A DNA stretch of 64,000 nucleotides, from NCBI GenBank assembly GCA_014360655.1, contig JACIXC010000001.1, positions 17,173-81,172 of the forward strand, in the 5' to 3' direction. Shown piece by piece: positions 3,269-55,500 of this stretch. The notes below the pieces were generated by a model, which saw nothing but the letters and a program-made list of their open reading frames with translations, was not told the DNA's origin and ran no database searches. Each line of letters opens with the position of its first letter. Within the stretch, counting starts at the first letter, position 1. The position numbers and the translations under genes were made by a program. Source of the stretch: Actinomycetota bacterium. GTDB lineage: Bacteria; Actinomycetota; Geothermincolia; Geothermincolales; RBG-13-55-18.

Positions 3269-5821
3269 TCAGCTGGGAGCGTGGATTTCCGCCGGCTCCG
3301 GTCCGCCGGCCTCTTCGGATTCCCACTCCTCCCGCGGATGCGGCTTCCTGCGGGCGATGATGGTGATGATGGAGGGAAGCACCAGGAGGCTCGCCGCAAG
3401 GGAGACGGCCAGGGAAAGCGCGGTGATGAGCCCGAAACGGCGGATGGGGGCCATCTTGGAATAGGAGATGACCAGGAAGGCGCCGGCGGTGGAGGCCGCG
3501 CTGGCCAGGAGGGGTTTTCCCACGCGCATCACGGAGATGTCCAAGGCCTCCGCCACGCTAACCTCTTGCGGGGAGTATTCCTCCAGGAATCGGTGGGTCA
3601 CGTGGATGCCGTAGTCGATTCCCATGCCGATGATCATGGATGCCACCAGCACGGTCATCATGTCCAGTTCCCACCCCATGAGCGCCAGGAACCCCATCTC
3701 CACCGCCACCCCGGCCACCAGCACGGAGAGGGTGGCCAGCCCGTAGGTGACGGAACGGAAGATGAGGATGAGCACCAACCCGGAGAGCAGCAGAGCGAGG
3801 AGCGCCGTGCGCAACTGGGTGGGAACCAGGTTCCCCAGCAGATCGTAGGTGAGGGGGGTGATGCCTCCCACCTTGTATCCGATAGCGAGCGAGCCGAAGC
3901 AGTTCTCGGCCGCCTCCTTGAGGACGCGGTTCTTGTCTATGGCCTCCCGGTTGCTCCTGGCGCCCTCGCTGAACACGCTGATCAGGGCGGCCCGGTGATC
4001 GGCGGAGATCAGCTTGCCCTCCTGCGACCCGAAGAGCTCGCTGATGGTGGCGAGGTCCTCTTCCGCCTCCTTCGCCGTGGCCGGCAGGGAGGCGGCGTAA
4101 TCCGCTCCCGGCGCGGCCTTTCCCGTCTCCACGCGGAAATCCTGCAGCAGTTCCGCGAGGGTCGAGCTCCCGTTCTCCGTGAAATAGGGCGTGGATGCCA
4201 GTTCCTCCTGGAAGCGGCGCATGGCGGCCAGTACCTGGGGCTCCAGCACGTTTCCGGTCAGGAGCACCACGTCCTCCTGCTGTCCCCCGAAGATGCGCTC
4301 CTGCTCGTACTGGGCCTGCAGCGAGGGGATGTCCTGCGGGGCCAGGGCACGCAGGTCCGGGGTGGTGGTCAGGCGCAGGGAACCCAACACGCAGGCCAAG
4401 ACCACCAGAACATAGATGGCCACCACCGCGCGGGGGCGGTCCTGCGAAATGCCCGCGATCCTTCCCATGGCGCGGTCGATCCGCGAGCTTCCTCGCGACG
4501 AGAAGATGGCGACGCCGCGGGGAGCACGGCTTCCCTCCCGGCGCAACCTGCGGTCCTCGCGCAGGATCATGAGGGCGGGGAGGAAGGTCACGCTGAGCAG
4601 GAAACAGATGCCTATGCCCACCGCGCCCATGTAACCGAACTGCCGCATGACGTCGAAGTCGGAAAAATGAAAGCTCGCGAAACCGAAGAAGGTGGTGATG
4701 CAGGCCAGGAAGACGGCTACTCCGACGGTCACCACCGCGCGGTAAGCGGCGTCCCTCTGGTCCTTGCGCATGCCGAATTCCTCGTAAAAGCGGCTCATCA
4801 TGTAGACGAGGTTCCCCAGGCTGATCCCCAGCACCAGCGGCCCGATGACGGCGGAGAGCATGGTGTAGGGAACGTGCAGCCATCCCATGAGCCCGTATAT
4901 CCACATGGCGGACATGACGATCACCGCGAGGGGAAGGAAGATGTCTGTGAACCTCTGGAAGGTCATGTAAAGCAGGAGCATGAGCACCAGGACGGCGATA
5001 AGGGCCAGTACCCAGGTGCTCTCGAAGACGTAGTTCTCCAGGTCACGGTCTATGGAAGGGTCGCCGCTTATCATTACCCTTGCAGGTATCTCGCCGTCCT
5101 CGAAGTATCCGTGGAAGAAATCCTCGAACCTGCGGGCCGCCTCCCGCATCTCCTCCGTCTTCAGCATGGGGTTGACTTTGACCCAGATGGCGGCGTGCTT
5201 CCCGTCCGCGGAGAGGAGCGCGGAGCCCTCCTTCTCCACCGTCCACTTGCGTGCCACCGGGTTCGCCAAATACTGCGCGACCCCCTTCTCGATGGCCTCC
5301 TCAAAGGGGATGCTCCTCGCGGGGTCGTCGGGGTCGGGCACCGTGGTCCCCTCCGCGAAGCGCAGGATGGCGCCGATGTCGTTTATCAAAGGCCCGTAGG
5401 TCTTGCGCGCCTCGTTCAGGGCGTTCAGGGCGAACCCGGTGAGGAAATGCTCCATGTAGGTGTAATATTCCTCCCCCACCTCCGCTGCCATCTCCTTCTC
5501 GAGCAGGAGGAACTTCTTGATCATGGGGTAGGTGAGCAGGCGGTCGCTCTCCACCATGGGGATCTCGTAGACGGTGCCGCCGAAAAGCCGGTCCACTTCC
5601 TCGATGGTGCGCGAGGTCTCGAACTTGCTGGGGATGAGGTCCTTCTGGCCCGCCTTCACATCGATGAAGCCCATGCCCGCCGCCACCGGCAGGGTGAGGG
5701 CGATGCAGATAAGGACCACCGCGAGCGCATGATCGCGGCACAAGCGGGCGAAGAACTTCAACCTTCCATCCTCCTCCTGGCCTGTTCCCGTGCGGCGGGC
5801 AAATGCCTTGCCGCCATCCAC
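3269..5821 (-). CDS. MMPL/RND-superfamily membrane exporter (two 6-TM modules)
   Basis: 850 aa. Duplicated hydrophobic MMPL-type blocks separated by soluble loops; typical RND/MMPL length and topology. Confidence 0.85.
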   Translation of the reverse strand: MDGGKAFARRTGTGQEEDGRLKFFARLCRDHALAVVLICIALTLPVAAGMGFIDVKAGQKDLIPSKFETSRTIEEVDRLFGGTVYEIPMVESDRLLTYPMIKKFLLLEKEMAAEVGEEYYTYMEHFLTGFALNALNEARKTYGPLINDIGAILRFAEGTTVPDPDDPARSIPFEEAIEKGVAQYLANPVARKWTVEKEGSALLSADGKHAAIWVKVNPMLKTEEMREAARRFEDFFHGYFEDGEIPARVMISGDPSIDRDLENYVFESTWVLALIAVLVLMLLLYMTFQRFTDIFLPLAVIVMSAMWIYGLMGWLHVPYTMLSAVIGPLVLGISLGNLVYMMSRFYEEFGMRKDQRDAAYRAVVTVGVAVFLACITTFFGFASFHFSDFDVMRQFGYMGAVGIGICFLLSVTFLPALMILREDRRLRREGSRAPRGVAIFSSRGSSRIDRAMGRIAGISQDRPRAVVAIYVLVVLACVLGSLRLTTTPDLRALAPQDIPSLQAQYEQERIFGGQQEDVVLLTGNVLEPQVLAAMRRFQEELASTPYFTENGSSTLAELLQDFRVETGKAAPGADYAASLPATAKEAEEDLATISELFGSQEGKLISADHRAALISVFSEGARSNREAIDKNRVLKEAAENCFGSLAIGYKVGGITPLTYDLLGNLVPTQLRTALLALLLSGLVLILIFRSVTYGLATLSVLVAGVAVEMGFLALMGWELDMMTVLVASMIIGMGIDYGIHVTHRFLEEYSPQEVSVAEALDISVMRVGKPLLASAASTAGAFLVISYSKMAPIRRFGLITALSLAVSLAASLLVLPSIITIIARRKPHPREEWESEEAGGPEPAEIHAPS

Positions 5822-13076: not shown

Positions 13077-13335
13077 GTCTTGGCGGCGGTACGCTCCGCA
13101 ACTCCATTCTTACTCCTAGTCTATTTTCTATGCCGCAAGCGGACTTTCCTCCGCTTGCCCATCCTCTCTCACGCTCCCGTTTCCGCCGCTCCTGCCGTTT
13201 CGTTTCATGTAGCGTTAAAGACGCTTTGAAAAGACCGTAAAGACACGGCATTATTTTACCCAAAGCGCGGCCCGAATTCCTCCCCGACTGTCTTCACTCC
13301 GGCAACCTCCCCATATACCAAGGCGGGCGGCCCGG

Positions 13336-13590
13336 CTTCCGGAAGAAGCACATATACGCAACCACCAAGCCCGGGGAACTACAGGGTCGGTCGCAGCGAG
13401 CCTGCGAGCGAGACCGTTACCCTGAGGCCCCGGGCCGGAAGAAGGTACATATACGCAACCACCTAGCCCGGGGAACTACAGGGTCGGTCGCAGCGAGGAC
13501 GCCTTTCCCAAGGCCTCGGATCTACGAGAAAGGAACGCGGCGCCGAGCGAGACCGTTACCCTGAGGCCTGGCCGCTGGAAGAAGGAAAGG
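13336..13590. repeat. Two tandem copies of a ~100-bp intergenic repeat unit (family shared with 22914-23285); second copy carries a 45-bp insertion
   Basis: Unit about ggaagaagg-acatatacgcaaccacc(a/t)agcccggggaactacagggtcggtcgcagcgag-cctg-cgagcgagaccgttaccctgaggcc. Copy 1 at 13336-13429. Copy 2 at 13430-13568, with an insert between gcagcgag and cgagcgagaccg. Confidence 0.7.
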
Positions 13591-13601
13591 CCGCGCACCT
13601 T

Positions 13602-15833
13602 TCAGCGCGACATCCCCGGGGCGTATCCGCAATTCACGTGTCCCCCCACCCAGGAGCCGTTATAACGGAAGTAGATGGGCCGCTCCACCACGATTTCCCC
13701 CGTGGCGTGCACGGAAACGGACATGCCTTCCTGGTAGGGCGACATGCTGTTCAGGTAGAGGGTGGTGCGCGAGGAGGCGGGCAGCCGCACCCTCTCCATC
13801 ATCAGCTCGCCGCTCTCGAAGTGCAGCATGATCTCGGCCGAAAGCTCCACCGCGCCAGCATTCTGCAGGCACAGCCAGTCCTCGAAGCCGGGCCCGGTGT
13901 AACCCTCCGCCAAATACCAGTGGCGGGAGGGCGCCTTCACGCCCACGAGCACGTCGCCGCCCTTGCACCACTTACCGTAATCGTGGTAGATGCTCCTCTC
14001 GGCCACGAAGGGCCTCTCCCCCTCCATCTTGACGGAGACCTCCAGGTTAGCCCCCGCGCGCAGGTTGACGTTCACCGTGCGCCTGGAGAGAGGGGGCACG
14101 ACCTCCTCGTCAGCGATGTTGGCCCCGTTTCTGGTCTGGTACGTGATGCGCACGCGGTTGGGCGCCGTATCGGGGTTGAACAGGCACAGCCACTCCTCGA
14201 AGCCGGCTCCCGTGTATCCCTCGGCGAAGTACCAGGTGGTGGAGGGTTGATTGCTGCCGCCCGAGACGTGTCCCCCCGCCCACTGGTTGCGGTAGAGGAA
14301 ATACATGGGGCGCTCCGCGACCAGCGGGACGCCGTTCGTGGAGGTCACCCGCAGGGAGACATCCTTTCCCGGTCCCACCTTTCCGTTGACGAAGACGCTG
14401 TAGCGCCGCCTGGGCGCCAGGGACATGTCCTCCGAGAGGAGCAGGCCGGCCGGTGAGAGGTACTCGACCCTCGCCTTCGCCTCCGTATTCCCCGGGTTGA
14501 GCAGGCACAGCCATTCATCGAAACCGTCGCCGGTGTGCCCCTCGGCGAAGTACCAGGTGGTGGAGGGTTGATTGCTGCCGCCCGAGACGTGTCCCCCCGC
14601 CAACCGGTTGCGGTAGAGGAAATACATGGGGCGCTCCGCCACGATGGGGAGCGGGGAATCCACCACCAGGCTCACGTCCCGCCCCGCGCCCACCTGTCCC
14701 CCAACGTTGATGCTCAGCCGCGCCTCGGCCTCCACGCGGTAGGTGCGTGTGAGCGCCTCCCGGTCCTGGAAGAGGTACTGCACGCTGAAGTCCACGGGCG
14801 TGCCGTTGGGATTGAGCACGGTGAGCCACTCCTCGATCCCCGCCCAGGTGGCCCCCTCCGCGAAATACCATTTTCTGGCAGCAGAGGCCACGATGAGGTC
14901 CCGCTCCACCGCGGCGGTGCCGCCATCGCCGTAGTAGGCCACGGCCCGCAGGCGGTGTGTGCCGTCCCCCAGCGACGCGGTGTCCACATTGGTGCTGAAG
15001 GGGGGACCGCCGAAGCTCCGCAACAGCCCGCCGTCGAGGAAGAGGTCCATCCGGCTTACGGCCTCCGCTCCCAGCACCTGTAGGGAGACGTTGACGACAC
15101 CGCTCGATATGCGGTTCTCCTGCGGCTGGATAAAGCTTACGCGCGAGGGCATGCGTATGCCGCGCAGGATGGCCATGGCCTCCCGCGCCAGGTAGGCGTC
15201 ATCGCGCAGCAGTCGCTCCTGCGCGGGATTGGAGATAAAGGAGGCCTCGGTGAGTATGGCCGGCATGTTGGTGTTGTTGAGCACGCCGCAGTAGCCCACC
15301 TTTTTCACGCCGCGGTTGGGCAGCCCGAACTCCCCCACCAGCTCCGCCTGCACGGAGTTGGCCAGCTCCAGGGAGGCCTGGCTGGCGTATGTGGAAACCA
15401 GGGTCTCGGTTCCGTTGACGTTCGGGTCGTCCGGGTAGGCGTTGTGATGGATGCTGATGAAGCGGTCGGCCCCCCAGGAGTTGGCCATCTGCCAGCGCTG
15501 GGTGATGCTCACCGCGACGTCGCTCTCGCGCGTCATGAGCACCTGGGCGCCGTTGGCCAGGAGCAGGTCACGCAGCCTTAGGGCCACCTTGAGGTTGACT
15601 TCCTTCTCCTGCAGGCCCGTGGGGCCCACCGCTCCCGTCTCCGCCCCGCCGTGCCCGGCATCCACGCAGAATTTCCAGCCGCTCAGGGCGCCGGCGAGGG
15701 CGCGTTCTTCCCCGGCGGGCAGGCGGAGAGCGAGCGGGGAGAGCAACGCCAGGGAAGCGAGAAGGAGGCAGAGCGGGGCTGCCATGGCGCGGGACGCCGC
15801 TTCTCCGCGCGGACGGATTCCTTTACGGTGCAC
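13602..15833 (-). CDS. N-acetylmuramoyl-L-alanine amidase (Amidase_3) with four C-terminal tandem ~108-aa WYFAEG modules
   Basis: 743 aa. Signal peptide. Amidase_3 motifs CVDAGHGG...RFISIHHNA...TEASFISN. Then four repeats, each starting WY(F/L)AEG.TG.GFE.WL.L.NP (aa 321-743, nt 13602-14873). Confidence 0.85.
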   Translation of the reverse strand: MHRKGIRPRGEAASRAMAAPLCLLLASLALLSPLALRLPAGEERALAGALSGWKFCVDAGHGGAETGAVGPTGLQEKEVNLKVALRLRDLLLANGAQVLMTRESDVAVSITQRWQMANSWGADRFISIHHNAYPDDPNVNGTETLVSTYASQASLELANSVQAELVGEFGLPNRGVKKVGYCGVLNNTNMPAILTEASFISNPAQERLLRDDAYLAREAMAILRGIRMPSRVSFIQPQENRISSGVVNVSLQVLGAEAVSRMDLFLDGGLLRSFGGPPFSTNVDTASLGDGTHRLRAVAYYGDGGTAAVERDLIVASAARKWYFAEGATWAGIEEWLTVLNPNGTPVDFSVQYLFQDREALTRTYRVEAEARLSINVGGQVGAGRDVSLVVDSPLPIVAERPMYFLYRNRLAGGHVSGGSNQPSTTWYFAEGHTGDGFDEWLCLLNPGNTEAKARVEYLSPAGLLLSEDMSLAPRRRYSVFVNGKVGPGKDVSLRVTSTNGVPLVAERPMYFLYRNQWAGGHVSGGSNQPSTTWYFAEGYTGAGFEEWLCLFNPDTAPNRVRITYQTRNGANIADEEVVPPLSRRTVNVNLRAGANLEVSVKMEGERPFVAERSIYHDYGKWCKGGDVLVGVKAPSRHWYLAEGYTGPGFEDWLCLQNAGAVELSAEIMLHFESGELMMERVRLPASSRTTLYLNSMSPYQEGMSVSVHATGEIVVERPIYFRYNGSWVGGHVNCGYAPGMSR

Positions 15834-20124: not shown

Positions 20125-22797
20125 TTACCCCGCTTCCGACCTCGCCTTCACGGCGCCCATTCTCCCCACCTCGCGGAACCGGCGCAGGCGCAACGAATTG
20201 CTCACCACCGAGACGGAGCTGAAGGCCATGGCCAACGCGGCGTAGACCGGGTTGAGCAGAACCCCCCACAGGGGATAGAGCACCCCCGCGGCCACGGGAA
20301 TGCCCACCACGTTGTAGAAGAAGGCCCAGAAGAGGTTCTGCCTGATGGTGCGCAGGGTGGCGCGGGAAAGGGTCACGGCGGCGGCTACCTTGCGCAGGTC
20401 GTCGGAGATAAGGGTGATGTCCGAGGCCTCCAGGGCCACGTCGGTGCCGCTCCCCACGGCTATGCCGATATCCGCCTGTGCCAGGGCGGGAGCGTCGTTG
20501 ATGCCGTCGCCCACCATGGCCACCACCCTGCCCTCGCCCTGCAGTCGCTCTATCTCCCGCGCCTTCTCCCCCGGAAGGACCTCCGCCAGGACCCGCTCCA
20601 CCCCCGCCCGGCGCGCAACCGCCTGCGCGGAGGAGAGCCGGTCCCCGCTGAGCATGGCCACCTCGATCCCCAGCGCGCGCAGGGCACGCACGGCCTCCAC
20701 AGCCGTGTCCTTGAGCGCATCGGTAACCGCCACCAGCCCCCAGAGTTCTCCGTCCAGGGACACGTAGACCACCGTCTTGCCCTCACGCGACAGCCTCTCC
20801 GCCTCTCCCTCGAGACCGCGCGTGTCCACGCCGTTTTCGGACAGGAAGGCGGAGTTGCCCAGCAAAGCCCTCGCGCCACGCCAGGCGGCAGCCACCCCCT
20901 TACCTGGAAACGCCTGGAAATCGGATGCCTCTCCCGGGGTTATCCCCCTCTCTTCGGCTTCCCGCACCATGGTCTCCGCCAGCGGGTGCTCACTCCCCCG
21001 CTCCACGGTGGCCGCCAGGAATAGCAGCTCCTCCTCGCTCCTCCCCTCCGCGGCGAGGAGGTCGCTCACCTCGGGCCTTCCCCGCGTTAGGGTCCCCGTC
21101 TTATCGAAGACCACGGTATCAAGCCTGCCGGCTCTCTCCAGCACCTCTCCTCCCCTGATGAGAATCCCCATCTCCGCGCCCTTCCCCGTGCCCACCATGA
21201 TGGCGGTAGGAGTGGCCAGCCCCAGGGCGCAGGGGCAGGCGATGACCAGTACGGCCACGAAGTTGAGGAGGGCGAAGTTGAAGGACGGCTCCGGTCCCGC
21301 CAGCAACCAGGCCAGGAAGGTCACCGCCGCCATACCCATGACCGCGGGGACGAAGACGGCGGCCACCCTGTCTGCCAGGCGCTGCACGGGCGCCTTGCTG
21401 CCCTGCGCCTCCTCCACCAGGCGTATGATCTGCGCCAGCACCGTGTCCCCTCCCACCCGCGTCGCCCGGAAGCGGAAGGAGCCGGTGCCGTTGATGGTAG
21501 CCCCGGTGACCTCGTCGCCGGGCCCCTTCTCCACCGGAAGCGGCTCGCCGCTCAGCATGGACTCGTCAACGCTGCTGCGGCCTTCCAGGACCACACCGTC
21601 CACGGGGATCTTCTCGCCGGGCCGCACCACCACGACATCCCCCACCTTTACCTCCTCCACCGGGATCTCGACCTCTCCATCGTCCCTGACCACCCTCGCG
21701 AGGCGGGCACGCAGGCCCATGAGGCGCCTTATGGCCTCCGAGGTGCGCCCCCTCGCCCTTGCCTCCAGGAAGCGCCCCAGCAGGATGAGGGCGATGATGG
21801 TGGCGGAGGCGTCGTAGTAGACCGCAAGCTCGAGACCGGTGCCGCTGATGAAAGAGGGGAAGAAGGTCGCCACCACGCTGTAGGCGTAGGCGGCGGTGGT
21901 CCCCACCGCTATGAGTGTGTTCATGTCCGTGGTCCCATGGCGCGCCGCCCGCAAGGCCGCGCGATAGAAGGTCAGGCCCGGCCCGAACTGCACCGGCGTG
22001 GCCAGGGCGAAGAGCAGGTAGAAGAGGGTCCGCTCGGGGATATCCCTCAGTCCCGGGAGGTGCATGCCGAGCATGGACAGGAACATGATCACCGCGGCCG
22101 ATGCCAGGCTGTAGATGAGCTTCGCCCGCAACACGCGGCCCTCCCTCTCGCGGCGCCGCCTCTCGCGGTCGAGGGGTTCCTCTCCCTCGCCGGGAGGCAG
22201 CAGCCTGTATCCCGCCGCCTCCACGGTGCGGGCCATCTTCTCGTAAGAAGCGATTGCGGGGTCGAAGACGACGGCAGCCCTCTCCGTGGCCAGGTTGACG
22301 TCCGCGCTCATCACCCCCTCCACCCCGCCGAGGGCCTTCTCCACGCGCGCCACGCAGGAGGCGCAGGTCATGCCCTCCACGCCGAAGACCGCCTTCTCCA
22401 GCCCTGCCCGGTAGCCCAGCTCCTCTATGACCTTCGCCATCCCTTCCGCGCTCACCTTGTTGGGCTGGTAGGATATGGTAGCTTTCTCGGAAGCCAGGTT
22501 CACGGACACCTCCTCCACCCCCGGCAGGTCCCTGAGGGCCTTCTCCACCCTGGCGGTGCAGGAGGCGCAGGTCATGCCGCCCACCCTGATGACCAACCGG
22601 GAGGCGTCACCACCGCTCCCGCTCTCTGCCTTCTCCCCGCCCGCGGCGACTTGCTCTTCTTGCTCCTCGCTCCCGACCCCTGTGCGCTTCATCTCCATCA
22701 TCTCCAGACCCGCTCGCGCCACGCCTCCGTGAGCCCCCGGAAGCAGACTCAGAATCCCTCTTCCGCTCAACTCCCGCTTTTCAAGCGCGACTTCCAA
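20125..22797 (-). CDS. copA: Copper-translocating P1B-type ATPase with two N-terminal HMA domains
   Basis: 890 aa. Two GMTCASC heavy-metal-associated motifs. TM CPC motif ([12 protein letters not shown]). DKTGTLT phosphorylation site. GDGINDAP hinge. Confidence 0.9.
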
Positions 22798-22913
22798 CTC
22801 GTGAAACGCGCTCTCGACGCATAAAGTCCTTCTTAATCCATTATGAATGCATCGTTTTCCTCAGTACATGAGCCATCCCATAAAGGTCCCTCCCCGTAGA
22901 AAGGCATGTGACG

Positions 22914-23285
22914 CCGGGCGGGACCGCTACCCTGAGACCTCGGCCCGGCCTCCTTATACGCTCCCACCAAGGCCGGGAACGACCGGGTCGGTCGCAGCGA
23001 GCCTCTACTGAACCACCCACACAGGCCGGGTCCGGGGGTCGGGTGAGCGACATCGCAAGCGGCCTCAGGACGAGGAAGGTAGATGATGAACCCTTGCATG
23101 GATGGAGCCCCTGCATGAAGAGGGGAGACCATCGTGAGGCCGCGCGTCGCGGAGCGAGCACGAAACCCCGGCCCGGCCTCCTTATACGCTCCCACCAAGG
23201 CCGGGAACGACCGGGTCGGTCGCAGCGAGCCTGCGAGCGAGACCGTTACCCGGCGGCCCGGCCGCCGGAAGAAGGACGGGCGTCA
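22914..23285. repeat. Second locus of the ~100-bp repeat family (two copies, first carries a ~150-bp insertion at the same internal site)
   Basis: tccttatacgctcccaccaaggccgggaacgaccgggtcggtcgcagcgagcc at 22951-23003 and 23178-23232. Copy 2 continues tgcgagcgagaccgttacccggcggcccggccgccggaagaagg. Copy 1 is interrupted after gcagcgagcc by 23004-23150. Lies in the divergent region between copA and the UPF0104 gene. Confidence 0.7.
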
Positions 23286-23341
23286 TGGAGCGATCACGCG
23301 CACCCGGCCCCATTTCATCGCGCTTCGGGTAAAATGCCCTT

Positions 23342-24460
23342 ATGGGCGAGGAACAACCCTGCGACACGGGCGGAAGCACCGGCCGCTCTCGGAGGCGGCG
23401 GGGCCTTATCATGGCCGTCTCCCTCTCCGCCGCCACCCTCATCGTCATCTCCCTGGTCACCCTGGACAGGGCGACGTTCAGCGCCCTCTCCAACCTCTCC
23501 CCCGGCTTCCTGCTCCTCGCCGTCGCCCTCTCCCTCGGGCGCTGGCTGTGGGCGGTGCTGCGCATGCGCCTGCTCATAAGCTGGGCGGGAAAGAGCGTGC
23601 CCGTACGGAACGTCGCAAAGACGGTGTACGCGGGCTATTTCACCGGCCTCATCACGCCCTGGAGGGCGGGCGGGGTAACGGGGGAGATGTTCTTCCTTTA
23701 CGTCTACGGGCTGGGGGCAGGGGAGGGGGTGGCCGTGGTCTCCTTCGGCGCCTGCGTATCCACCGTGCTGCTCATGCTCTTCTTCCCCTTCGCCATATGG
23801 ATAGCACGCAGCCACATCGCCCTCTCCGTGTCCGTGCAGGGGGTACTCTTCTCGGCCCTGGCCGTGGGGCTGCTTTACCTGGCCCTTGTGCTGTGGGCCC
23901 TGCTGCGGCCACAGAGCGCCTTGGACAAGACGCTCCTCGCGCACTCGCCCGCGTTCCTGCGCAGGCGGGAGCGGTACCGCCGCTTCCTGGAAAGGCTCGC
24001 TTGCGAGATCCAGTCCTTCACGCTGTCCCTGCGCCGCCTGGTCCGCCTGGGAAAAGCAAGGCTGTCGGCCGTGGTGCTCCTGACGGCGCTTTACTGGCTG
24101 ACGGGATTCCTGGCCGTCCCGGCGGCGGTGGTCGGCCTGGGCTATGCTTCCTATTTCTGGAAGGCGCTGGTGGCGCAGCTGGTGGTGCACATCCTCATGC
24201 CCTTCGTGCCCACCCCCGGCGGGAGCGGGATAGGCGAGATAGGGTTCCTCTACGTGTACAAGAGCGTTCTGCCCGACCTGGGCCTCGCCGCGCTGCTCAC
24301 CCTCATCTGGCGCTTCATAGACTTCTATCTCGGTCTGCTGGTGGGCGGCGGGGCCTTCCTGCTCGTCATGCGGGATTTCAACCGCTCTCCGAGCCGCGCC
24401 GCCGCGGACGCGCAGCTCGCGGCGCCGCGCGCCGGCGAGGAGACCTCCAAGGCGGGTTGA
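23342..24460 (+). CDS. UPF0104/LPG-synthase-TM (flippase-like) integral membrane protein
   Basis: 372 aa. About 8 TM helices. Motifs typical of the flippase-like TIGR00374 family (RWLWAVLRMRLL, GYFTGLITPWRAGG). Confidence 0.65.
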   Translation: MGEEQPCDTGGSTGRSRRRRGLIMAVSLSAATLIVISLVTLDRATFSALSNLSPGFLLLAVALSLGRWLWAVLRMRLLISWAGKSVPVRNVAKTVYAGYFTGLITPWRAGGVTGEMFFLYVYGLGAGEGVAVVSFGACVSTVLLMLFFPFAIWIARSHIALSVSVQGVLFSALAVGLLYLALVLWALLRPQSALDKTLLAHSPAFLRRRERYRRFLERLACEIQSFTLSLRRLVRLGKARLSAVVLLTALYWLTGFLAVPAAVVGLGYASYFWKALVAQLVVHILMPFVPTPGGSGIGEIGFLYVYKSVLPDLGLAALLTLIWRFIDFYLGLLVGGGAFLLVMRDFNRSPSRAAADAQLAAPRAGEETSKAG

Positions 24461-26871: not shown

Positions 26872-26916
26872 GCTTACCCCCTCCCTTTCACGGCGCTCTT
26901 ACCCTTCCCTGCCTCT

Positions 26917-28527
26917 TCACAGGTAATCCTCGGCCCGGTAGACGTTTTCCGCCTGCGGCGAAAACTCCTCGCGCAGCACCCGGTCCAGGTACTTCTCCGA
27001 GGCGCTCTTGGGAATCTCTTCCACCACCTGCAGGTAACTCGGGACGGCGTTCTTCTCCAGGCCCTCGGCGGCCTTCCTGAACACGGAAGCGGGATCGATG
27101 GAGCGGCCCTCGAAGGGAGCCACCGCGGCGACCAGGTCGCTCTCCCCGGGAGCCCCGGAGGAGGCCGGTATGCCGTATACGCACACCTCGGACACGTCGG
27201 GGTGCTCCCCGATGACCTTCTCCACGTAGGAGGGGATGATGAACTCGCCCTGGCGCCGCAGCCCCCCTCCCTCCTTGCGGTAATCGAAGAAGAGCCAGCC
27301 TTCCTCGTCGCGGTGGACCATGTCGCCGGTGCGCAGCCAGCCCCCCCGCGTCTTCGCCGCAGAGTCCTCGGGTCTCCCGTGGTACTCCACCTCGGGCTTC
27401 TGAGTGACCGCCCGCATGAGCAGCTCACCGGTGACGAAGGGCGGCACCTCGTTGTCGTTCTCGTCCACGATCCTGTACTCCATGAGCCCTTCGATGGGCT
27501 TGCCGAAGGAGCCTACGGGGCCCTGGTCGATTGGCTTGTAGGCGAAGCCTCCCTCCACCGCCCCGTACCATTCCAGTATCTTCACGTTGAAGCGCTTCTC
27601 GAAGTCCTCCCAGATGGCCACGGGGGTGCCCGCGGAGATGACCACCTCCACGGGGTTGTCCGCGTCGTCCGGCCGCGGCGGCTCGTTGTAGATACCGGAC
27701 ATCATGCCCCCCAGGAGGGAAAAGGTGGTGCAACCGTAGCGCCGGCATATGTCCCAGATGCGGCTCTTGGTGAAGCGCTGGCTGATCACCGCCCGGATGC
27801 CCAGGGCCAGGGCGGACATCATGGTCACCGCCTGGGCATTGCCGTGGGTGAGGGAAAGGCCGGTGTAGAGGATGGAGTCCTCCGTGTATCCCCACACCAT
27901 CCTGGCGAGGGCGGTGTACATCAACGTGCGCGACGCCTTGATGACCACTCCCTTGGGGTTGCCGGTGACCCCCGAAGTGTAGATTATTTCCATGGGGAGG
28001 TTCGGGTCATCCACCCTGCCTTCAAGCTCGTAGATGTCCGGGCCGTCCACCAGCTCGTTCACGGTGGGATACTTCGTGGCCAAAGAAAGGTCGGCATCCG
28101 GTTTAAGGTTGAGCCAGATGCGCTCAATCCCCGGCAGGGTTCTCGCCTGCGCCTCCACCTCCGGCAACAGGTCGGCGGTGGTGATCACGGCCCTGGCCCT
28201 GCAGTCACCCAGCATGTAGGCGAGCTTCTCGCCCCGGGATCGAGGGTCTATGGGCACCGCCACGTAGCCGAGCAGGTTGGCGGCCGCCATGGCGTAGACC
28301 ATCTCAGGGTGGTTGCGCATGACCAGGGCCACGGCATCCCCCTTGCCTATGCCGCTCTCCCGCAGGCCCCTGGCCACCTTGAAGGTGTTGGCCACCAGCT
28401 GGCGGTAGGTCAGGGGCTCGTCACGGTAAAGCCCGCCGTTCTCGAAGACCAGCCCCACGAACTCGGGCTTCTCCTCCATGCGCATCTCCATCTGGTGAAA
28501 GATGAGCGCGGGGTTTTTCTCCTCCAT
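26917..28527 (-). CDS. AMP-dependent acyl-CoA synthetase (paralog A)
   Basis: 536 aa. YTSGVTGNPKGVV AMP-binding motif. About 75% aa identity to 31458-33197 with about 100-bp near-identical DNA blocks. Confidence 0.85.
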   Translation of the reverse strand: MEEKNPALIFHQMEMRMEEKPEFVGLVFENGGLYRDEPLTYRQLVANTFKVARGLRESGIGKGDAVALVMRNHPEMVYAMAAANLLGYVAVPIDPRSRGEKLAYMLGDCRARAVITTADLLPEVEAQARTLPGIERIWLNLKPDADLSLATKYPTVNELVDGPDIYELEGRVDDPNLPMEIIYTSGVTGNPKGVVIKASRTLMYTALARMVWGYTEDSILYTGLSLTHGNAQAVTMMSALALGIRAVISQRFTKSRIWDICRRYGCTTFSLLGGMMSGIYNEPPRPDDADNPVEVVISAGTPVAIWEDFEKRFNVKILEWYGAVEGGFAYKPIDQGPVGSFGKPIEGLMEYRIVDENDNEVPPFVTGELLMRAVTQKPEVEYHGRPEDSAAKTRGGWLRTGDMVHRDEEGWLFFDYRKEGGGLRRQGEFIIPSYVEKVIGEHPDVSEVCVYGIPASSGAPGESDLVAAVAPFEGRSIDPASVFRKAAEGLEKNAVPSYLQVVEEIPKSASEKYLDRVLREEFSPQAENVYRAEDYL

Positions 28528-31301: not shown

Positions 31302-31457
31302 CGGGCCGGTGCTCCTCCCCTTCGACAGGTCGTGACCGTAGGAGCTCCTCCCGCGTCTCCCGCGCATGCCGCCAGGGGTGGCAGGGGCCGGCCTCCCGCC
31401 TTGGGAACCCGCCTCCCGCTGGGAGGCTCTCGCCGGAGGTGCGGCGCGCTTTCCCCC

Positions 31458-33197
31458 TCAGGCGTAATCCTCCAGGCGGTAGACGTTTTCCGCGTCGGGA
31501 CGGAAAGCCTCGCGCAGGAGGCGGTCCAGGTGCTTCTCCGAGGGGCTCTTGGGAATATCTTCCACAACCTGCAGGTAACTGGGCACGGAGTTACGCTCCA
31601 GGCCGGCCAGGGCCGCCTTGAAGACGGAATCCGGGTCTATACTGCGGCCTTCGAAGGGGACCACCGCCGCCACCAGGTCACTCTCGCCCGGTGCGCCAGA
31701 GGCCGCCGGGATGCCGTAGACGCACACCTCTGAGACGTCGGGGTGTTCCCCGATGACCTTCTCCACCAGGTCGGGCTTGATGAAGTCGCCGGCCCGCCGC
31801 AGCGCTCCTCCCTTGCGGTAGTCGAAGAAGAACCACCCCTCCTCGTCACGGTGCACCATGTCCCCGGAGCGCAGCCAGCCGCCCCGCATCTTCTCCGCCG
31901 AGGCCTCCGGTTTCTTGTAGTAATCCACCTTGCTCTGCGTGAGCATGCGGCAGATGAGCTCGCCGGTCACGCCGGGAGGCACTTCGTTGTCCTCCTCGTC
32001 CACCACTTTCATCTCCACCAGCCCGGGAAGGGGCTTTCCGAAGGACCCTATTGGGCCCTTGCCGATGGGCCGGTAGGCGAAACCGCCCTCGATGGCCGCG
32101 TACCACTCGAGGATCTGGACGCCGAAGCGCCGCTCGAAATCCTCCCATATGGCCCGCGGGGTTCCCGCCGATACCACCATGCGTACCGGGTTGTCGGCGT
32201 CGTCCGGGCGCGGCGGCTCGTTGTAGATCCCGGACATCATGCCCCCCAGGAGGGAGAAGGTGGTGCATCCGTAGCGGCGGCACACATCCCATATGCGGCT
32301 CTTGGTGAAGCGCTGGCCTATCACCGCCGGGATGCCCATGGCCAGCGACGGGAAGAGGGTGACCGCCTGGGCGTTCCCGTGCGCCAGGGAAAGCCCGGTG
32401 TAGGGGATGTCGTCCTCCCGGTAGCCCCAGACTATGTACCCGAGCAGGCAGTACATGGCGTTGCGGCGCGAGTCCAGTGTGACCCCCTTGGGGTTGCCCG
32501 TCACCCCGGAGGTGTAGATGATCTGCACCGGGGCGGAGGGGTCACCGGCCGCCCCCTCCGGCTCCCGCGGCGGGTTCCCCTCCAGCATCTCGTTGAGCGT
32601 GGGGTAACGCGAGGCGAGGGAGGGGTCGGCATCCGGCTTCAGGTTCAGGTAGATCTTCGGCGAGGCCGAGACGCTCCTCGCCGCCGCCTCCACCTCCGGC
32701 AGGAGGTCAGCGGTGGTGACCACGGCCCTGGCGTCGGAGTCCGCCAGCTGGTAGGCGAGCTTCTCTCCCCTGGCGCGGGGGTCGATGGGCACCAGCACCG
32801 TGCCCAGCAGGCTGCAGGCGGCCAGCGCGTAGACGAACTCGGGGTGGTTGCGCATGACCAGGGCCAGTTTGTCCCCCTTCTCGAACCCCTCGCGCCGCAG
32901 CCCCTCCGCCAGACGCAGGGACCGGGAGTAGAGCTGCGCGTAGGTCAGCCTCTCGTCCTCGTAGAGACCTCCGTTCTCGAAGATGAGCCCGGTGCGGTTG
33001 GGGCTCTCCTCGGCGCGTTGCGCGAGGAGCCCGGAAAGCAGCCCCCTGTGCCGGGGCAGCCTGGTTTCCGCCACCCCGCGCACGGCGCGGGAGACCAGGT
33101 CGACGTGGGCCAGGAACTTGAGCGCCATGTATAGCCTGGGATTTTTTTCCTCCAGCTTTTTCAGGGCCGGCTTATCGAAGATCTTATCCAGATCCAT
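31458..33197 (-). CDS. AMP-dependent acyl-CoA synthetase (paralog B)
   Basis: 579 aa. YTSGVTGNPKGVT motif. Shares long identical peptide runs with paralog A (IYNEPPRPDDADNPV, KVIGEHPDVSEVCVYGIPA.SGAPGESDLVAAV). Confidence 0.85.
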   Translation of the reverse strand: MDLDKIFDKPALKKLEEKNPRLYMALKFLAHVDLVSRAVRGVAETRLPRHRGLLSGLLAQRAEESPNRTGLIFENGGLYEDERLTYAQLYSRSLRLAEGLRREGFEKGDKLALVMRNHPEFVYALAACSLLGTVLVPIDPRARGEKLAYQLADSDARAVVTTADLLPEVEAAARSVSASPKIYLNLKPDADPSLASRYPTLNEMLEGNPPREPEGAAGDPSAPVQIIYTSGVTGNPKGVTLDSRRNAMYCLLGYIVWGYREDDIPYTGLSLAHGNAQAVTLFPSLAMGIPAVIGQRFTKSRIWDVCRRYGCTTFSLLGGMMSGIYNEPPRPDDADNPVRMVVSAGTPRAIWEDFERRFGVQILEWYAAIEGGFAYRPIGKGPIGSFGKPLPGLVEMKVVDEEDNEVPPGVTGELICRMLTQSKVDYYKKPEASAEKMRGGWLRSGDMVHRDEEGWFFFDYRKGGALRRAGDFIKPDLVEKVIGEHPDVSEVCVYGIPAASGAPGESDLVAAVVPFEGRSIDPDSVFKAALAGLERNSVPSYLQVVEDIPKSPSEKHLDRLLREAFRPDAENVYRLEDYA

Positions 33198-46598: not shown

Positions 46599-48197
46599 TT
46601 AGCGCGCACGGATCATCCTCGCCGCCCCGAGGGAAGCAAGCAAGGCTCCCGCCGCGAACAACGATCCCATCATGATGAAGAGGTAGACTACGTCGAAGCC
46701 GGTGGCCGGCAGGGTCTGCTCCGCTCCCACCTGCACCTGCGGCTCCACCGGCGGCGTCACCACCTCTCCTCCCACCGGCACCCGGTTGAAGAAGTCCACC
46801 TTCTTTTTCTGCCCGGGAAGGAGGTCGAAGGTCACGGCCGTGGGCGCGGTGGCCTCGTAGCCGAAGGGAACGATCTCCTGCACGGTGTAACGGCCGGGCT
46901 TGAGGCCGCCGAAGGAATAAGCGCCACCGGCGGCGCTTTTCGTGCTGGCGACCGGCAGGCCGTCCGCGTCAAGGAGCTGGATGGTAACTTCATCCAAGCC
47001 GCTTTCTCCCTCGTCCGCCGTGCCGTTGCCGTTGGCATCCAGCCACTTGGTGCCCGCGATGGATGCGGGAAGAACTTCCTCCTGCTTGACCTCGATGTCC
47101 ACCTCCACCTCGTCCTCCAGCTCACCGATCCTGGCCTTGTTGTTCAGGGTGTAGGTCCCCGCGGCCTCGGCGGTGAGTTCCTTGGTAATGAGCAGGGTGT
47201 AGGGAGCGGTGGCCAGGTCAAGCGACCAGGGCCCGGTCAGGGATGCCGCCGGGGCTCCGTTGACGGTCACGGACTTGATCTCGTATCCCAGCCCCGTGGG
47301 CGGGTCCACGCTCTCGATGTCCTCCAGGGTAACCACCTGCGGTCCGCCCGCCGCCGGCTTGTCGAAATCCTGCCGGCTGTGGAAGGTCCAAGTCTGCATG
47401 CCCGGCTTGGGCGGATCGGGCTTGTTGCTGATGGTGATCTCGATGAGGTTGCTCATGGAGCTGACGCTGGAGAGCGCCACCGGCAGGGTGAAGGTTCCCT
47501 CGTAGGAATAGACGTGCGGCCCACCTGTAGGTATGGCGTTGTCTCCCAGGGGGACGGTGGTGGTGATGCTCGAGGGGGCGGCAATCCAGCTCGGACCTCC
47601 GGCCTTGTACTCCACGGTGTCCGAGACGGCGGTCACGTCCGCCGGCCAGTCGCCCTTGTTCTGTACGAAGATGTTGCCGGTGATGTGATAGGTATCCGGG
47701 CTCAGGCCGGCCGTCACCTCTATGGTGAAGGTGATCTCCTTCTTCTCGCCCACGGTCATCTCCAGGTAGTCCTCGGAAGCCGTCTTTTCCAGTCCTATCT
47801 CCGGGTCCACGGCCTCCACCAGGTCCACGTCCTTCCAGACGTCCAGGCTGGTGACCTCCCAGGGGTCAGGACCGTTCTCGATGGAGAGGGCAGCGGCCTT
47901 GAGATCAGAGGAAGGCGCCTGTTCCGCCTCCCCATCTTCCCCCGCTTCCGCCGCCGCGGCTTCCCCCGCGTAAGGCGTTTCCGCGGACGTTGCCTCCAAC
48001 CCCGGAGACTCGTCCTCCGCCTCTTCTCCTATTCCCGATTCCTCGCCGCGCTCTCCGGTGGACTGGACGATATCGCCCTTACCCGATGCCGCAACAGGCA
48101 TAAAGGGAGAGGCGAGGAAAAAGAGGAGCGCCGAGGCCAAGAGAATAATCGCTGATCTTCTCAACATCTCGTTCATTTTGTTCACTCCTTTCGCCAT
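46599..48197 (-). CDS. LPXTG-anchored cell-surface protein with SdrD-B/Cna-B-like domain
   Basis: 532 aa. Signal peptide. Acidic Glu/Ala-rich spacer. Cna-B-like GTKWLDANGNGTADEGESGLDEVTIQLLDADG...GRYTV. C-terminal LPATG + hydrophobic helix + ARMIRAR sorting signal. Confidence 0.8.
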   Translation of the reverse strand: MAKGVNKMNEMLRRSAIILLASALLFFLASPFMPVAASGKGDIVQSTGERGEESGIGEEAEDESPGLEATSAETPYAGEAAAAEAGEDGEAEQAPSSDLKAAALSIENGPDPWEVTSLDVWKDVDLVEAVDPEIGLEKTASEDYLEMTVGEKKEITFTIEVTAGLSPDTYHITGNIFVQNKGDWPADVTAVSDTVEYKAGGPSWIAAPSSITTTVPLGDNAIPTGGPHVYSYEGTFTLPVALSSVSSMSNLIEITISNKPDPPKPGMQTWTFHSRQDFDKPAAGGPQVVTLEDIESVDPPTGLGYEIKSVTVNGAPAASLTGPWSLDLATAPYTLLITKELTAEAAGTYTLNNKARIGELEDEVEVDIEVKQEEVLPASIAGTKWLDANGNGTADEGESGLDEVTIQLLDADGLPVASTKSAAGGAYSFGGLKPGRYTVQEIVPFGYEATAPTAVTFDLLPGQKKKVDFFNRVPVGGEVVTPPVEPQVQVGAEQTLPATGFDVVYLFIMMGSLFAAGALLASLGAARMIRAR

Positions 48198-48317
48198 ACA
48201 AGAAACCGACCTCTATGTGAAGAGGCCGGTTTCACTGTTAGCTCCCGGCGGCTCCCGAGTGACCAAACTACAAGCCGCCTTTCAAAGCTTCCTCTTGCTC
48301 TTTAGATAATTCTAACA

Positions 48318-54502: not shown

Positions 54503-55044
54503 TCATCGCGCTGCACGTCGCCCAGCTCCGCGCATATCTCGGCTCCCACCGGGTTGGCGCCGCCTGCCAGGTAGTGGGCAAGGTGGGCGTGCAGGCACTT
54601 CAAGCCCCCAGCGACCGTCCCCCCGATGCCCTCCCTGTCGCCGTAGAGCGCCTCCACCCTCTCCGCGACTCCCAGCCGCCGCGCCCAGGCCGACCTCGCC
54701 TCGCGGTAGCCCTCCTCGGCCCTGCGCAACGCCGCGGCGAAATCCTCGTCGCCCTCCAGCCTGCGACGCAGTTCCTCCCTGAACCCGCTTCCCTCCAGAC
54801 GAGAAACGGCACGCTGCAACAGGGGACAGGTAAGCCAGAAGAGGGTGGGGAAGGGCGTGCCGTCCTCGAGAAGGGGCGAGGTGGCGATCACCTGCACCCT
54901 GCCGTGGGGGCAGCGCGAGGCGACCGCCACCTCGCCCCGCAACGGACGGCCGAGCTGCCTTTCCACCAGCAAGCGGTCCTCCTGCCGCATCTCTTCGCAA
55001 TGCACGGCTCCTCCAGCCATCTTCCCGCCCCGCGCACGGGGCAT
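54460..55044 (-). CDS. DUF501-domain protein
   Basis: 194 aa. CPHGRVQV and PFPTLFWLTCP motifs characteristic of DUF501. Immediately upstream of ppx, as in mycobacterial genomes. Confidence 0.6.
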   Translation of the reverse strand: MPRARGGKMAGGAVHCEEMRQEDRLLVERQLGRPLRGEVAVASRCPHGRVQVIATSPLLEDGTPFPTLFWLTCPLLQRAVSRLEGSGFREELRRRLEGDEDFAAALRRAEEGYREARSAWARRLGVAERVEALYGDREGIGGTVAGGLKCLHAHLAHYLAGGANPVGAEICAELGDVQRDECGGECAGFMGRKR

Positions 55045-55071
55045 CCGGGAGGAAACGCGCCGCGGCCCCGT

Positions 55072-55500
55072 TCACCGGCGCGACGCTATGAACACCTTGA
55101 AGTCGGCGACCGCCATGCTCTCGCCCTTCTGGTTCTTCACCTCCATGAGGAAGGAGACCACGCCTCCGCGCTCGTCCTTCTCCCGCTTGTCGACCACCTC
55201 CGCCTCCACGTGCAAGGTGTCTCCTATCTTCGTGGGGTTCACGAAGCGCACGCGATCCATGCCGTAGAAAGCGATGAGGGCCCACTCCGTGAGCGGCATG
55301 AGCCCCGTCGCCACCGAGAGCACCAGCATGCCGTGGGCTATCCTCTCCCCGAAGGGGCTCCTCGCCGCGTACTCCCGGTCCACGTGCAGGGGATACCAGT
55401 CGCCGCTGAAGGCCGCGAACATGACTATGTCCGCCTCGGTCACGGTACGTCCGCGGGTCACGAGCTTCTCCCCCACCTTGAAATCCTGGTAGTACAACAT
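55072..55500 (-). CDS. MaoC-like (R)-specific enoyl-CoA hydratase (hot-dog fold)
   Basis: 142 aa. DWYPLHVDREYA...GERIAHGML hydratase-2 motif. Confidence 0.8.
   Translation of the reverse strand: MLYYQDFKVGEKLVTRGRTVTEADIVMFAAFSGDWYPLHVDREYAARSPFGERIAHGMLVLSVATGLMPLTEWALIAFYGMDRVRFVNPTKIGDTLHVEAEVVDKREKDERGGVVSFLMEVKNQKGESMAVADFKVFIASRR

Follow-up and report, generated by a model that had tools for sequence, protein, structure and literature searches.

A probable new family of small interspersed hairpin repeats with a variable apical slot in an uncultured Actinomycetota lineage

We investigated a cluster of repeats lodged between a copper-type P-type ATPase gene (copA) and a LPG_synthase_TM/UPF0104 membrane protein gene in a stretch of 64,000 nucleotides (nt) from an Actinomycetota bacterium (contig JACIXC010000001.1), hereafter the window. 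This cluster, locus B, is a mosaic of hairpin repeats of the same family that forms a second array in the window, locus A (13329-13590), and the two loci together contain three intact type-1 units and one cut unit. We consider it probable, at roughly 0.6, that these sequences belong to a lineage-specific family of small, interspersed, non-autonomous, DNA-level hairpin repeats, a new family of the general kind represented by REPINs, BIMEs and BOX elements. The features that match selfish repeats are the extragenic location, the multiple copies, the tandem arrays, the orphan halves, the chimeras, the nesting, the presence or absence of the element at a given site, and the unrelated neighbors.

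The unit of the family is a rod-like hairpin of 100–140 nt in which two conserved inverted arms, pairing as P1 to P3, surround an apical slot. P1 is formed by GCCCGGGG and CCCCGGGC at locus A and by GGCCGGG and CCCGGCC at locus B, with an AACTA bulge past it; P2 pairs CAGGGT with ACCCTG at locus A and CCGGGT with ACCCGG at locus B; and P3 is CGGTC/GACCG, with a TT bulge. Compensatory changes in P1 and P2 already set the two loci apart. The rod is closed by an internal loop, GCAGCGAG/GAGCGAG, with the slot at its tip. The hairpin is preceded by a leader that is semi-conserved (..TCTGCGC..CCACC; ATATACGC..CCACC in the window) and followed on its 3' side by a purine-rich tail, GGAAGAAGG. Some sub-families possess an additional outer inverted repeat of about 11 bp (for example AGTGTTCGGGC ... 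GCCCGAACACT; L153:2440-2650, L148:1190-1380, L002:1930-2130) that encloses leader, hairpin and tail, so that the rod reaches about 190 nt. The copies in the window lack this repeat.

Locus A consists of two adjoining units, both recovered with a covariance model of the family, R1:

13347-13445 (+): A1, short-form unit with the apical slot CCTG
13446-13590 (+): A2, long-form unit with an apical module, P4, at 13498-13543

A1 matches R1 over 13347-13443 (93.6 bits, E = 1.5e-19) and A2 over 13444-13587 (109.8 bits, E = 3e-23). Only the whole unit folds better than expected: A1 (13349-13445) gave z = -4.1 as RNA and z = -5.4 as DNA, whereas 5' and 3' arms of the window units folded alone as DNA did no better than shuffles (z = +0.24, +0.92, -0.98 and -1.83).

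At locus B, the mosaic comprises four pieces, given from left to right:

~22912-22950 (+): B0, orphan 3' arm (..GGGCGGGACCGCTACCCTGAGACCTCGGCCCGGCC) with no 5' partner, at most three mismatches to the consensus
22951-23004 (+): B1, cut short-type unit with leader and 5' arm only, 97% identical to 23179-23232
23005-23178 (+): complete type-2a unit, identified by end-to-end alignment and fold
23179-23283 (+): B2, complete short-type unit, R1 match at 23177-23277

The original prediction, made from the letters of the window alone, had described repeat copies at this locus as relatives of those at locus A and had taken a partial upstream fragment for the 3' end of a further unit, and both proposals held up. 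A 71-nt direct repeat (22934-23004 versus 23162-23232) is 97% identical, the intact units of the two loci score 88–110 bits with R1 (88.4 bits, E = 2e-18, for B2), and the B0 stretch 22916-22950 has no more than three mismatches to the 3'-arm consensus, GAGCGAGACCGTTACCC. Orphan 3' arms are likewise found upstream of units in other genomes (L078, L104 and L075). B1 breaks off in the apical loop, after GCAGCGAGCCT (23004), and from 22949 on the cut copy obtains 27 bits; B2 has every part of the unit, that is, leader, P1, P2 and P3 in the forms given above for locus B, a CCTG slot, and tail. A model search with filters off revealed no further convincing R1 copy in the window. A weak match on the minus strand at 55015-55100 (16 bits, E ~0.07) takes in the outer stem and tail alone; it probably reflects a GC-rich hairpin at a gene boundary with no relation to the family.

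The family extends well beyond the window. A first scan with an exact 17-mer, covering one genome per species, returned 120 loci, most of them chance matches in GC-rich genomes because the 17-mer is too short, along with true copies in the Actinomycetota metagenome-assembled genomes (MAGs) CAYWXM01, CAKZMC01, CAZGWK01, CAYPZH01, JAQVFR01, CAZQFX01 and CAYHAT01. Four 17-mer matches in viral contigs proved not to be the element. A second scan of metagenomes with a more specific 25-mer added 28 loci. R1 matched 32 copies among the loci of the first scan and 42 among those of the second, about 75 altogether; they represent at least 7 MAGs of Actinomycetota and some 10 metagenomes. Identical units form head-to-tail arrays at L056, L106, L143 and L150, and loci can be closely spaced, with two in the 64-kb window and three in 15 kb of L133. 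Several contigs end inside the element (L155, L016, L056 and L104). Searches with blastn against phage and plasmid collections produced no match to the family, and its conserved strings did not occur in the literature searched.

Two further sequence types accompany the arrays in other genomes. Past orphan 5' arms and before the next unit there is an AT-rich module, CCCGGGTGTCGACTATATAAAAACCACTTCCCGAG (L075:4340-4420 and 4680-4750; L024; L110; L119), whose TATATAAAAA, conspicuous in genomes of 65% GC, could be a promoter. The other is a repeat unrelated to the family, about 125 nt long and containing two hairpins (CTTGCGGGGGATGGGTGCGGCGAAGGCCCGTCC...ATGTCTGGGGAGG), that lies 3' of arrays in one genome group (L129:1346, L133:5206 and 8765, L135:8091, L138:786, L139:3829 and 7887, L147:573, L154:2403); the window does not contain it, and nothing in Rfam matches it.

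Covariation among the copies supports the paired rod. Standard pairs occupy 97.0% of cells in the 32-copy set and 97.4% in the 42-copy set, compared with about 91% in shuffles; 9 and 10 pairs, respectively, are changed on both sides, and none of 500 shuffles was as good. Sliding the 3' partners by 1–3 columns reduced pairing to 32–53%. Wobble cells on the written strand are unevenly divided, with 17 G·T versus 3 A·C in the MAG set and 10 versus 4 in the metagenome set, and all three A·C cells of the first set come from a single doubtful match; this bias, read with the caution that a model-guided alignment itself leans towards G·U over A·C, modestly points to the written strand as the strand whose folding is required. 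Both strands nevertheless fold about equally well.

The apical slot is where the copies differ in kind. Across the approximately 75 copies its length is bimodal, either 4–6 nt or 42–49 nt, the longer class peaking sharply at 45. The long filler forms a hairpin that lengthens the rod and carries a pyrimidine-rich loop (UUUCUUC/CCUUUCC); it exists in at least four sequence sub-families, each of which folds singly as a rod extension. In a consensus fold across the sub-families, only a basal GCGC stem was common, and the cross-sub-family alignment is not a structural one. Overall, the slot may hold 4–6 nt, a hairpin of about 45 nt, a type-2 domain of 60–100 nt or a whole other unit, and the apex is the point at which the family varies and nests. 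Nesting is seen at L014:4787-5008, where a type-2 5' arm and a type-2 3' arm enclose an entire type-1 unit with its leader and tail. The copy at L104:5286 has lost all of the sequence from one to the other of the AGCGAG direct repeats on either side of the slot.

Against this background, the sequence within locus B that had been called a unique insert (23004-23150) appears in a different light. It is part of a complete type-2 unit, 23005-23178, that folds as a single long hairpin and is identical end to end at 82% of positions to a unit in L136, at 79% to one in L058 and at 77% to one in L128. Its leader (CTACTGAACCACCCAC, 23005-23023) is followed by a 5' arm (GGCCGGGTCCGGGGGTCGGG, 23024-23051) composed of GGCCGGG-T-CCGGGGGT-CGGG, an apical domain (~23052-23150) that measures about 100 nt and has a conserved base (GCGAC ATCGCAAGC GGCCTC ... 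GAGGCC GCGC GTCGC), and a 3' arm (GGAGCGAGCACGAAACCCCGGCCCGGCC, 23151-23178). The apparent resumption of the first repeat at cgagcacgaaaccccggcccggcc is this unit's own 3' arm and not a continuation of B1. A mini open reading frame in the apical domain (ATGATGAACCCTTGCATGGATGGAGCCCCTGCATGA after GAGGAAGG) is not conserved in the L058, L136 and L128 homologs and was discarded as a candidate.

The two interruptions in the window had also been placed at the same nucleotide. The breaks in fact fall at 13497, where A2 diverges after GCAGCGAG, and at 23004, 3 nt apart, both inside the apical loop. Sequences of both supposed inserts recur in other genomes. The A2 filler (13498-13543, 45/46 nt) belongs to a sub-family also present in L137, L146, L149 and L147 and is the standard long apical module of the family and not a local insertion, and the 30-mer 23037-23066 of the type-2a unit occurs exactly in 4 loci, including the L136, L058 and L128 units. 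The junction at locus B is shared as well: a short-unit 5' arm, CT[A/T]ACTGAACC and a type-2 unit follow one another with the same breakpoint at L136:535-690, a non-orthologous locus that adjoins neither copA nor the LPG-synthase gene, which implies that the composite formed once and was then copied as a block. Thus, the suggestion of a loop that tolerates variable sequence, or of a preferred site of insertion, finds support across the family in the contents of the slot and in the L014 nesting, but the window copies do not represent separate hits; both are inherited sub-family features, the filler of locus A being a sub-family trait and the junction of locus B being shared with L136. In both genomes the junction lies at C|T (GAGCC|TCTAC at window positions 23003-23006, GACAC|TTAAC at L136:588-592). 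E. coli TnpA-REP cleaves BIME linkers at this dinucleotide; since there are just two cases, we treat the coincidence as a lead rather than as evidence.

To place the locus B array in evolutionary context, we compared the orthologous intergenic regions. In the window, the array sits in a spacer of 544 nt (22798-23341) between these genes:

20125-22797 (-): copper-type P-type ATPase gene (copA), with the Pfam domains HMA, E1-E2_ATPase and Hydrolase
23342-24460 (+): LPG_synthase_TM/UPF0104 membrane protein gene, assigned by Pfam

Homologs of the LPG-synthase protein are labeled "MAG: Actinomycetota", and the nearest named one, at 68% identity, is from Candidatus Solincola (class Ca. Geothermincolia). 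Contigs with LPG-synthase orthologs retain the divergent copA neighbor, and they compare with the window as follows:

L155: protein 89% identical, contig starts in the 3' arm CCATTACGCGGCGGCCCGGCCGCGGGAAGATG about 190 nt upstream of the ATG, element present
L156: protein 81% identical, spacer of 131 nt, no element
L158/L159: protein 77% identical, spacer of 428 nt, no element
L160 (GCA_040757835.1): protein 77% identical, spacer of 210 nt, no element

The array is seen only in the window and its closest relative, and is most simply explained as a gain in the lineage of the window organism.

In the mechanism that we propose for such repeats, units and composites would be copied to new intergenic sites and subsequently amplified into tandem arrays. 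Such spread might involve a hairpin intermediate of single-stranded DNA on which an enzyme acts in trans or, alternatively, recombination or slippage at the AGCGAG direct repeats flanking the slot. Locus B would then have been assembled from an orphan 3' arm, a composite in which the cut short unit had already been joined to the type-2 unit, and a single intact short unit.

Several observations weigh against the interpretation of these sequences as mobile repeats. Pfam analysis of 10 neighboring proteins identified no transposase or other candidate enzyme, only housekeeping families (amidase, PorA-like, ABC ATPases, MscL, HEPN, DUF72 and flavoprotein); an all-against-all comparison of the 158 proteins encoded within 2.5 kb of arrays yielded small clusters of ordinary genes and no dominant family; and in none of 160 loci was a 5' arm separated from a 3' arm by a gene-sized interval, as cargo would separate them. 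No target-site duplication is definable, given that the flanks of single copies (L153, L148, L002 and L008) share no common direct repeat and that filled and empty orthologous sites are too diverged for alignment at the junction. An arm by itself is no palindrome, and the foot of the hairpin lacks GTAG. Bulges and internal loops are conserved among genomes whose orthologous proteins are only 74–81% identical, and the wobbles are biased to one strand, with 27 G·T versus 7 A·C cells in all; a functional RNA would likewise show both features. IS200/605-type and REP enzymes are thought to act on the lagging-strand template, and the C-rich strand favored by the wobbles is, by the usual reading of GC skew, not that template. 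Finally, mobility is inferred from one orthologous comparison and from the chimeras.

Several of these observations are shared with a different explanation, one that we regard as unlikely, namely, that the units are genes or modules for a structured non-coding RNA expressed from the written (+) strand, in most cases convergently with a neighboring gene or antisense to it, with the apical domain as an exchangeable functional module; the arrays would then be multi-copy RNA genes or processed precursors. The wobbles do fall on the written strand, with U·G in P3 having arisen in at least four lineages, and unpaired nucleotides (the AACUA bulge, the UU bulge and the GCAGCGAG/GAGCGAG loop) are strongly conserved where other intergenic DNA is unalignable. 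A constant apical module of about 45 nt with a pyrimidine-rich loop, and the AT-rich TATATAAAAA module upstream of some units, would also fit an RNA. However, we found no promoter-like or terminator-like signal common to the copies, units in arrays abut directly, and truncated halves, chimeras, nesting and differences in presence or absence are traits of repeats rather than of RNA genes. Furthermore, the equal folding of both strands and the inherent preference of the alignment for G·U weaken the strand argument, and there is neither a consistent partner gene nor an Rfam family: with Rfam 15 at the gathering threshold, the window contains only a tRNA and a cyclic di-GMP-II (c-di-GMP-II) riboswitch elsewhere and nothing at the repeats, and at E ≤ 10 both window loci return chance-level matches far under gathering scores, while the L135 array returns none.

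The placement of the arrays bears on another alternative. When genes near arrays were called from the GC content of third positions, arrays pointed their 3' end at the stop codon of a convergent gene 24 times, versus 7 in the other arrangement, within 300 nt, and 15 times versus 0 within 50 nt. The written strand is the C-rich one in 30 of 37 locus/orientation pairs, a figure in which gene orientation and replication orientation are confounded, as local GC skew could not separate them. REP elements have been described as 3'-end structures and as barriers to 3' exonucleases, and the reverse complement of our units, which is as stable as the written strand, could analogously act in cis at the 3' end of the upstream gene's mRNA, as a terminator independent of a U-tract or as an exonuclease barrier, which would account for the location beside stop codons. 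Locus A complies with this arrangement, A2 ending 15 nt from the stop codon of a convergent amidase_3 gene (13602-15833, -), and orthologs of that gene also have the element past the stop codon (L130, at a distance of 6). Nevertheless, we consider such a role quite unlikely as an explanation of the family. The wobble bias is on the opposite strand, so the respective positions would be C·A mismatches in the mRNA; a terminator scan flagged no unit on either strand, and no U-tract follows the hairpin; and neither tandem multiplication nor orphan halves are needed for termination. At locus B, moreover, the flanking genes are divergent, a setting atypical for the family, such that the array lies between two gene starts with no gene end to serve, and the orthologous loci L156, L158 and L160 manage without it. 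The weakest of the alternatives, a literal hotspot at which two independent copies were each struck by an unrelated insertion at the same nucleotide, could call upon the 3-nt proximity of the breaks in the apical loop and on the foreign units that do occupy the slot in the family (L014), but is very improbable because the locus A filler is a standard long module common to other genomes, the locus B junction also exists at another locus in L136 and the "insert" is itself a family member, so that neither event happened in place at the window loci.

A selfish origin and a role in RNA or at 3' ends are not mutually exclusive. On the strength of the one-strand wobble bias, the conserved unpaired nucleotides, the nesting at the apex and the placement after stop codons, two more specific scenarios can be conceived, which even together we view as a long shot: the family might constitute a novel class of modular, rod-shaped antisense RNA directed towards the 3' end of the neighboring gene, or the substrate of a mobilization system that targets hairpin apices and is as yet undescribed in Actinomycetota. 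In the former case, a possibility is a written-strand transcript with an exchangeable apical module; in the latter, possibly, a system acting on the strand opposite to that used by IS200/605 and RAYT enzymes.

Any effect of the array on the genes flanking locus B would be secondary. A motif at the start of the LPG-synthase gene, TAAAAT-N6-ATG (TAAAAT at 23330-23335; motif at 23330-23344), a putative leaderless-type promoter of the sort that such a motif suggests in Actinomycetota, is conserved in L155, L156 and L160, and the rest of the copA/LPG-synthase spacer is unalignable among the orthologous loci. The array ends about 45 nt upstream of this motif and leaves it intact.

Next to locus A, on the minus strand, a small GC-rich hairpin (13590-13611) overlaps the stop codon of the amidase gene and is followed by CTTTCCTTCT, whose reverse complement is the purine-rich tail that ends locus A's last unit. 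This hairpin, 13611-13590 in the direction of the minus strand, is the sole terminator-like site from the scan and is separate from the repeat units. Within the same amidase_3/Big_7/DUF5719 gene, four tandem repeats of 315/321 bp (13857-14870, -) with 62–90% identity indicate repeated protein domains. Elsewhere in the window, a c-di-GMP-II-GAG riboswitch aptamer (48215-48301, -), which exceeds its gathering score with 49 bits, immediately precedes a gene at 46599-48212 (-), and two paralogous genes about 4.5 kb apart (26912-28476 and 31453-33011) share 71–82% DNA identity over about 1.6 kb.

Small interspersed repeats have been well described in Proteobacteria and Firmicutes and hardly at all in deep, uncultured Actinomycetota. 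The present family is abundant, conserved across genomes and found at contig ends, and therefore bears on the assembly quality of MAGs, on strain typing and on annotation, where the element could be mistaken for a small RNA, a terminator or a regulatory site. For the genes flanking locus B, in particular, the array is to be regarded as a recent addition between promoters and not as a conserved regulatory element. The discrete slot and the nested copies also offer a clean system for exploring how hairpin repeats diversify.

Among known systems, some identities were rejected. The units are not intrinsic (Rho-independent) terminators, none having been flagged on either strand, and do not represent a curated RNA family, as no Rfam 15 model came at or near its gathering score at the repeats. 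Nor are they integron attC sites: GGGGAAC and GTTACCC do not fit the R''/R' consensus (RYYYAAC ... GTTRRRY) and do not pair with one another in the supported fold, and the units abut each other or housekeeping genes instead of gene cassettes.

A more general resemblance is to MITEs (miniature transposable elements with inverted repeats) such as Correia, ERIC and RUP, which are likewise intergenic elements of 100–200 nt whose terminal inverted repeats fold the whole element. ERIC, like the present family, also comes in different sizes because internal sequence has been gained or lost at fixed points. The present elements differ in being GC-rich and strongly biased in orientation; no target-site duplication could be defined for them, and no related insertion sequence was found among 160 loci.

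Pneumococcal BOX elements, with the structure boxA-boxB(n)-boxC, carry an optional central module between pairing outer modules (PMC3049150). The units described here are modular in the same sense, the center being present or absent without disturbing the outer fold; as for BOX, no autonomous partner has been proved, and BOX also clusters with other repeat families. However, BOX varies by the copy number of a single central module, whereas the present family varies by module class and nesting, and the two are unrelated in sequence and differ in host, AT-rich for BOX and 65% GC here.

BIMEs occur with short or long linkers, in tandem copies and as chimeras, with enzymatic cleavage at C|T in the linkers (PMC3333891). 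The present family shares several traits with the E. coli BIMEs, in which a REP is combined with an inverted REP: inverted halves are joined by a short (S) or long (L) linker, the short-linker forms are multiplied in tandem, and chimeric, "atypical" combinations bring several types of motif together in a mosaic. The sequences are not similar, and in BIMEs the halves, REPs of 30–40 nt that are each an imperfect palindrome, are independent hairpins, whereas here only the whole unit folds (z = -5.4, compared with +0.24 to -1.83 for single arms). The foot of the hairpin is CCACCAAG or CCACCAG and not GTAG; CTAC, which is GTAG on the other strand, is found in the P1/P2 bulge of many copies, and CGAC, CTAT or CTGC in other sub-families. 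Because the arms alone are non-palindromic and GTAG is missing from the foot, the family is not REP in the strict sense.

REPINs are REP doublets of Pseudomonas and enterobacteria that are mobilized by RAYT (Y1 HUH) transposases; they fold as hairpins, show compensatory changes and have a spacer whose length is conserved, their tandem arrays are oriented according to the replichore, and clusters originate by insertion into or next to existing copies (PMC3116915). The present family departs from REPINs in that its arms are not small palindromes, it lacks GTAG at the foot, its spacers fall into discrete short and long classes, its host is an uncultured anaerobic Actinomycetota lineage and no RAYT is linked to it (10 neighboring proteins scanned, with no recurrent neighbor family and whole genomes not covered). 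In other respects, the two are alike. Both are hairpins of about 100 nt with two conserved inverted arms, in which spacer length and the ability to pair matter; our units have inverted regions around a spacer of conserved length (4–6 nt or about 45 nt), 97% paired cells and 9–10 compensatory pairs. Both are extragenic and present in many copies, assemble into non-randomly oriented tandem arrays and form clusters by insertion into or beside existing copies.

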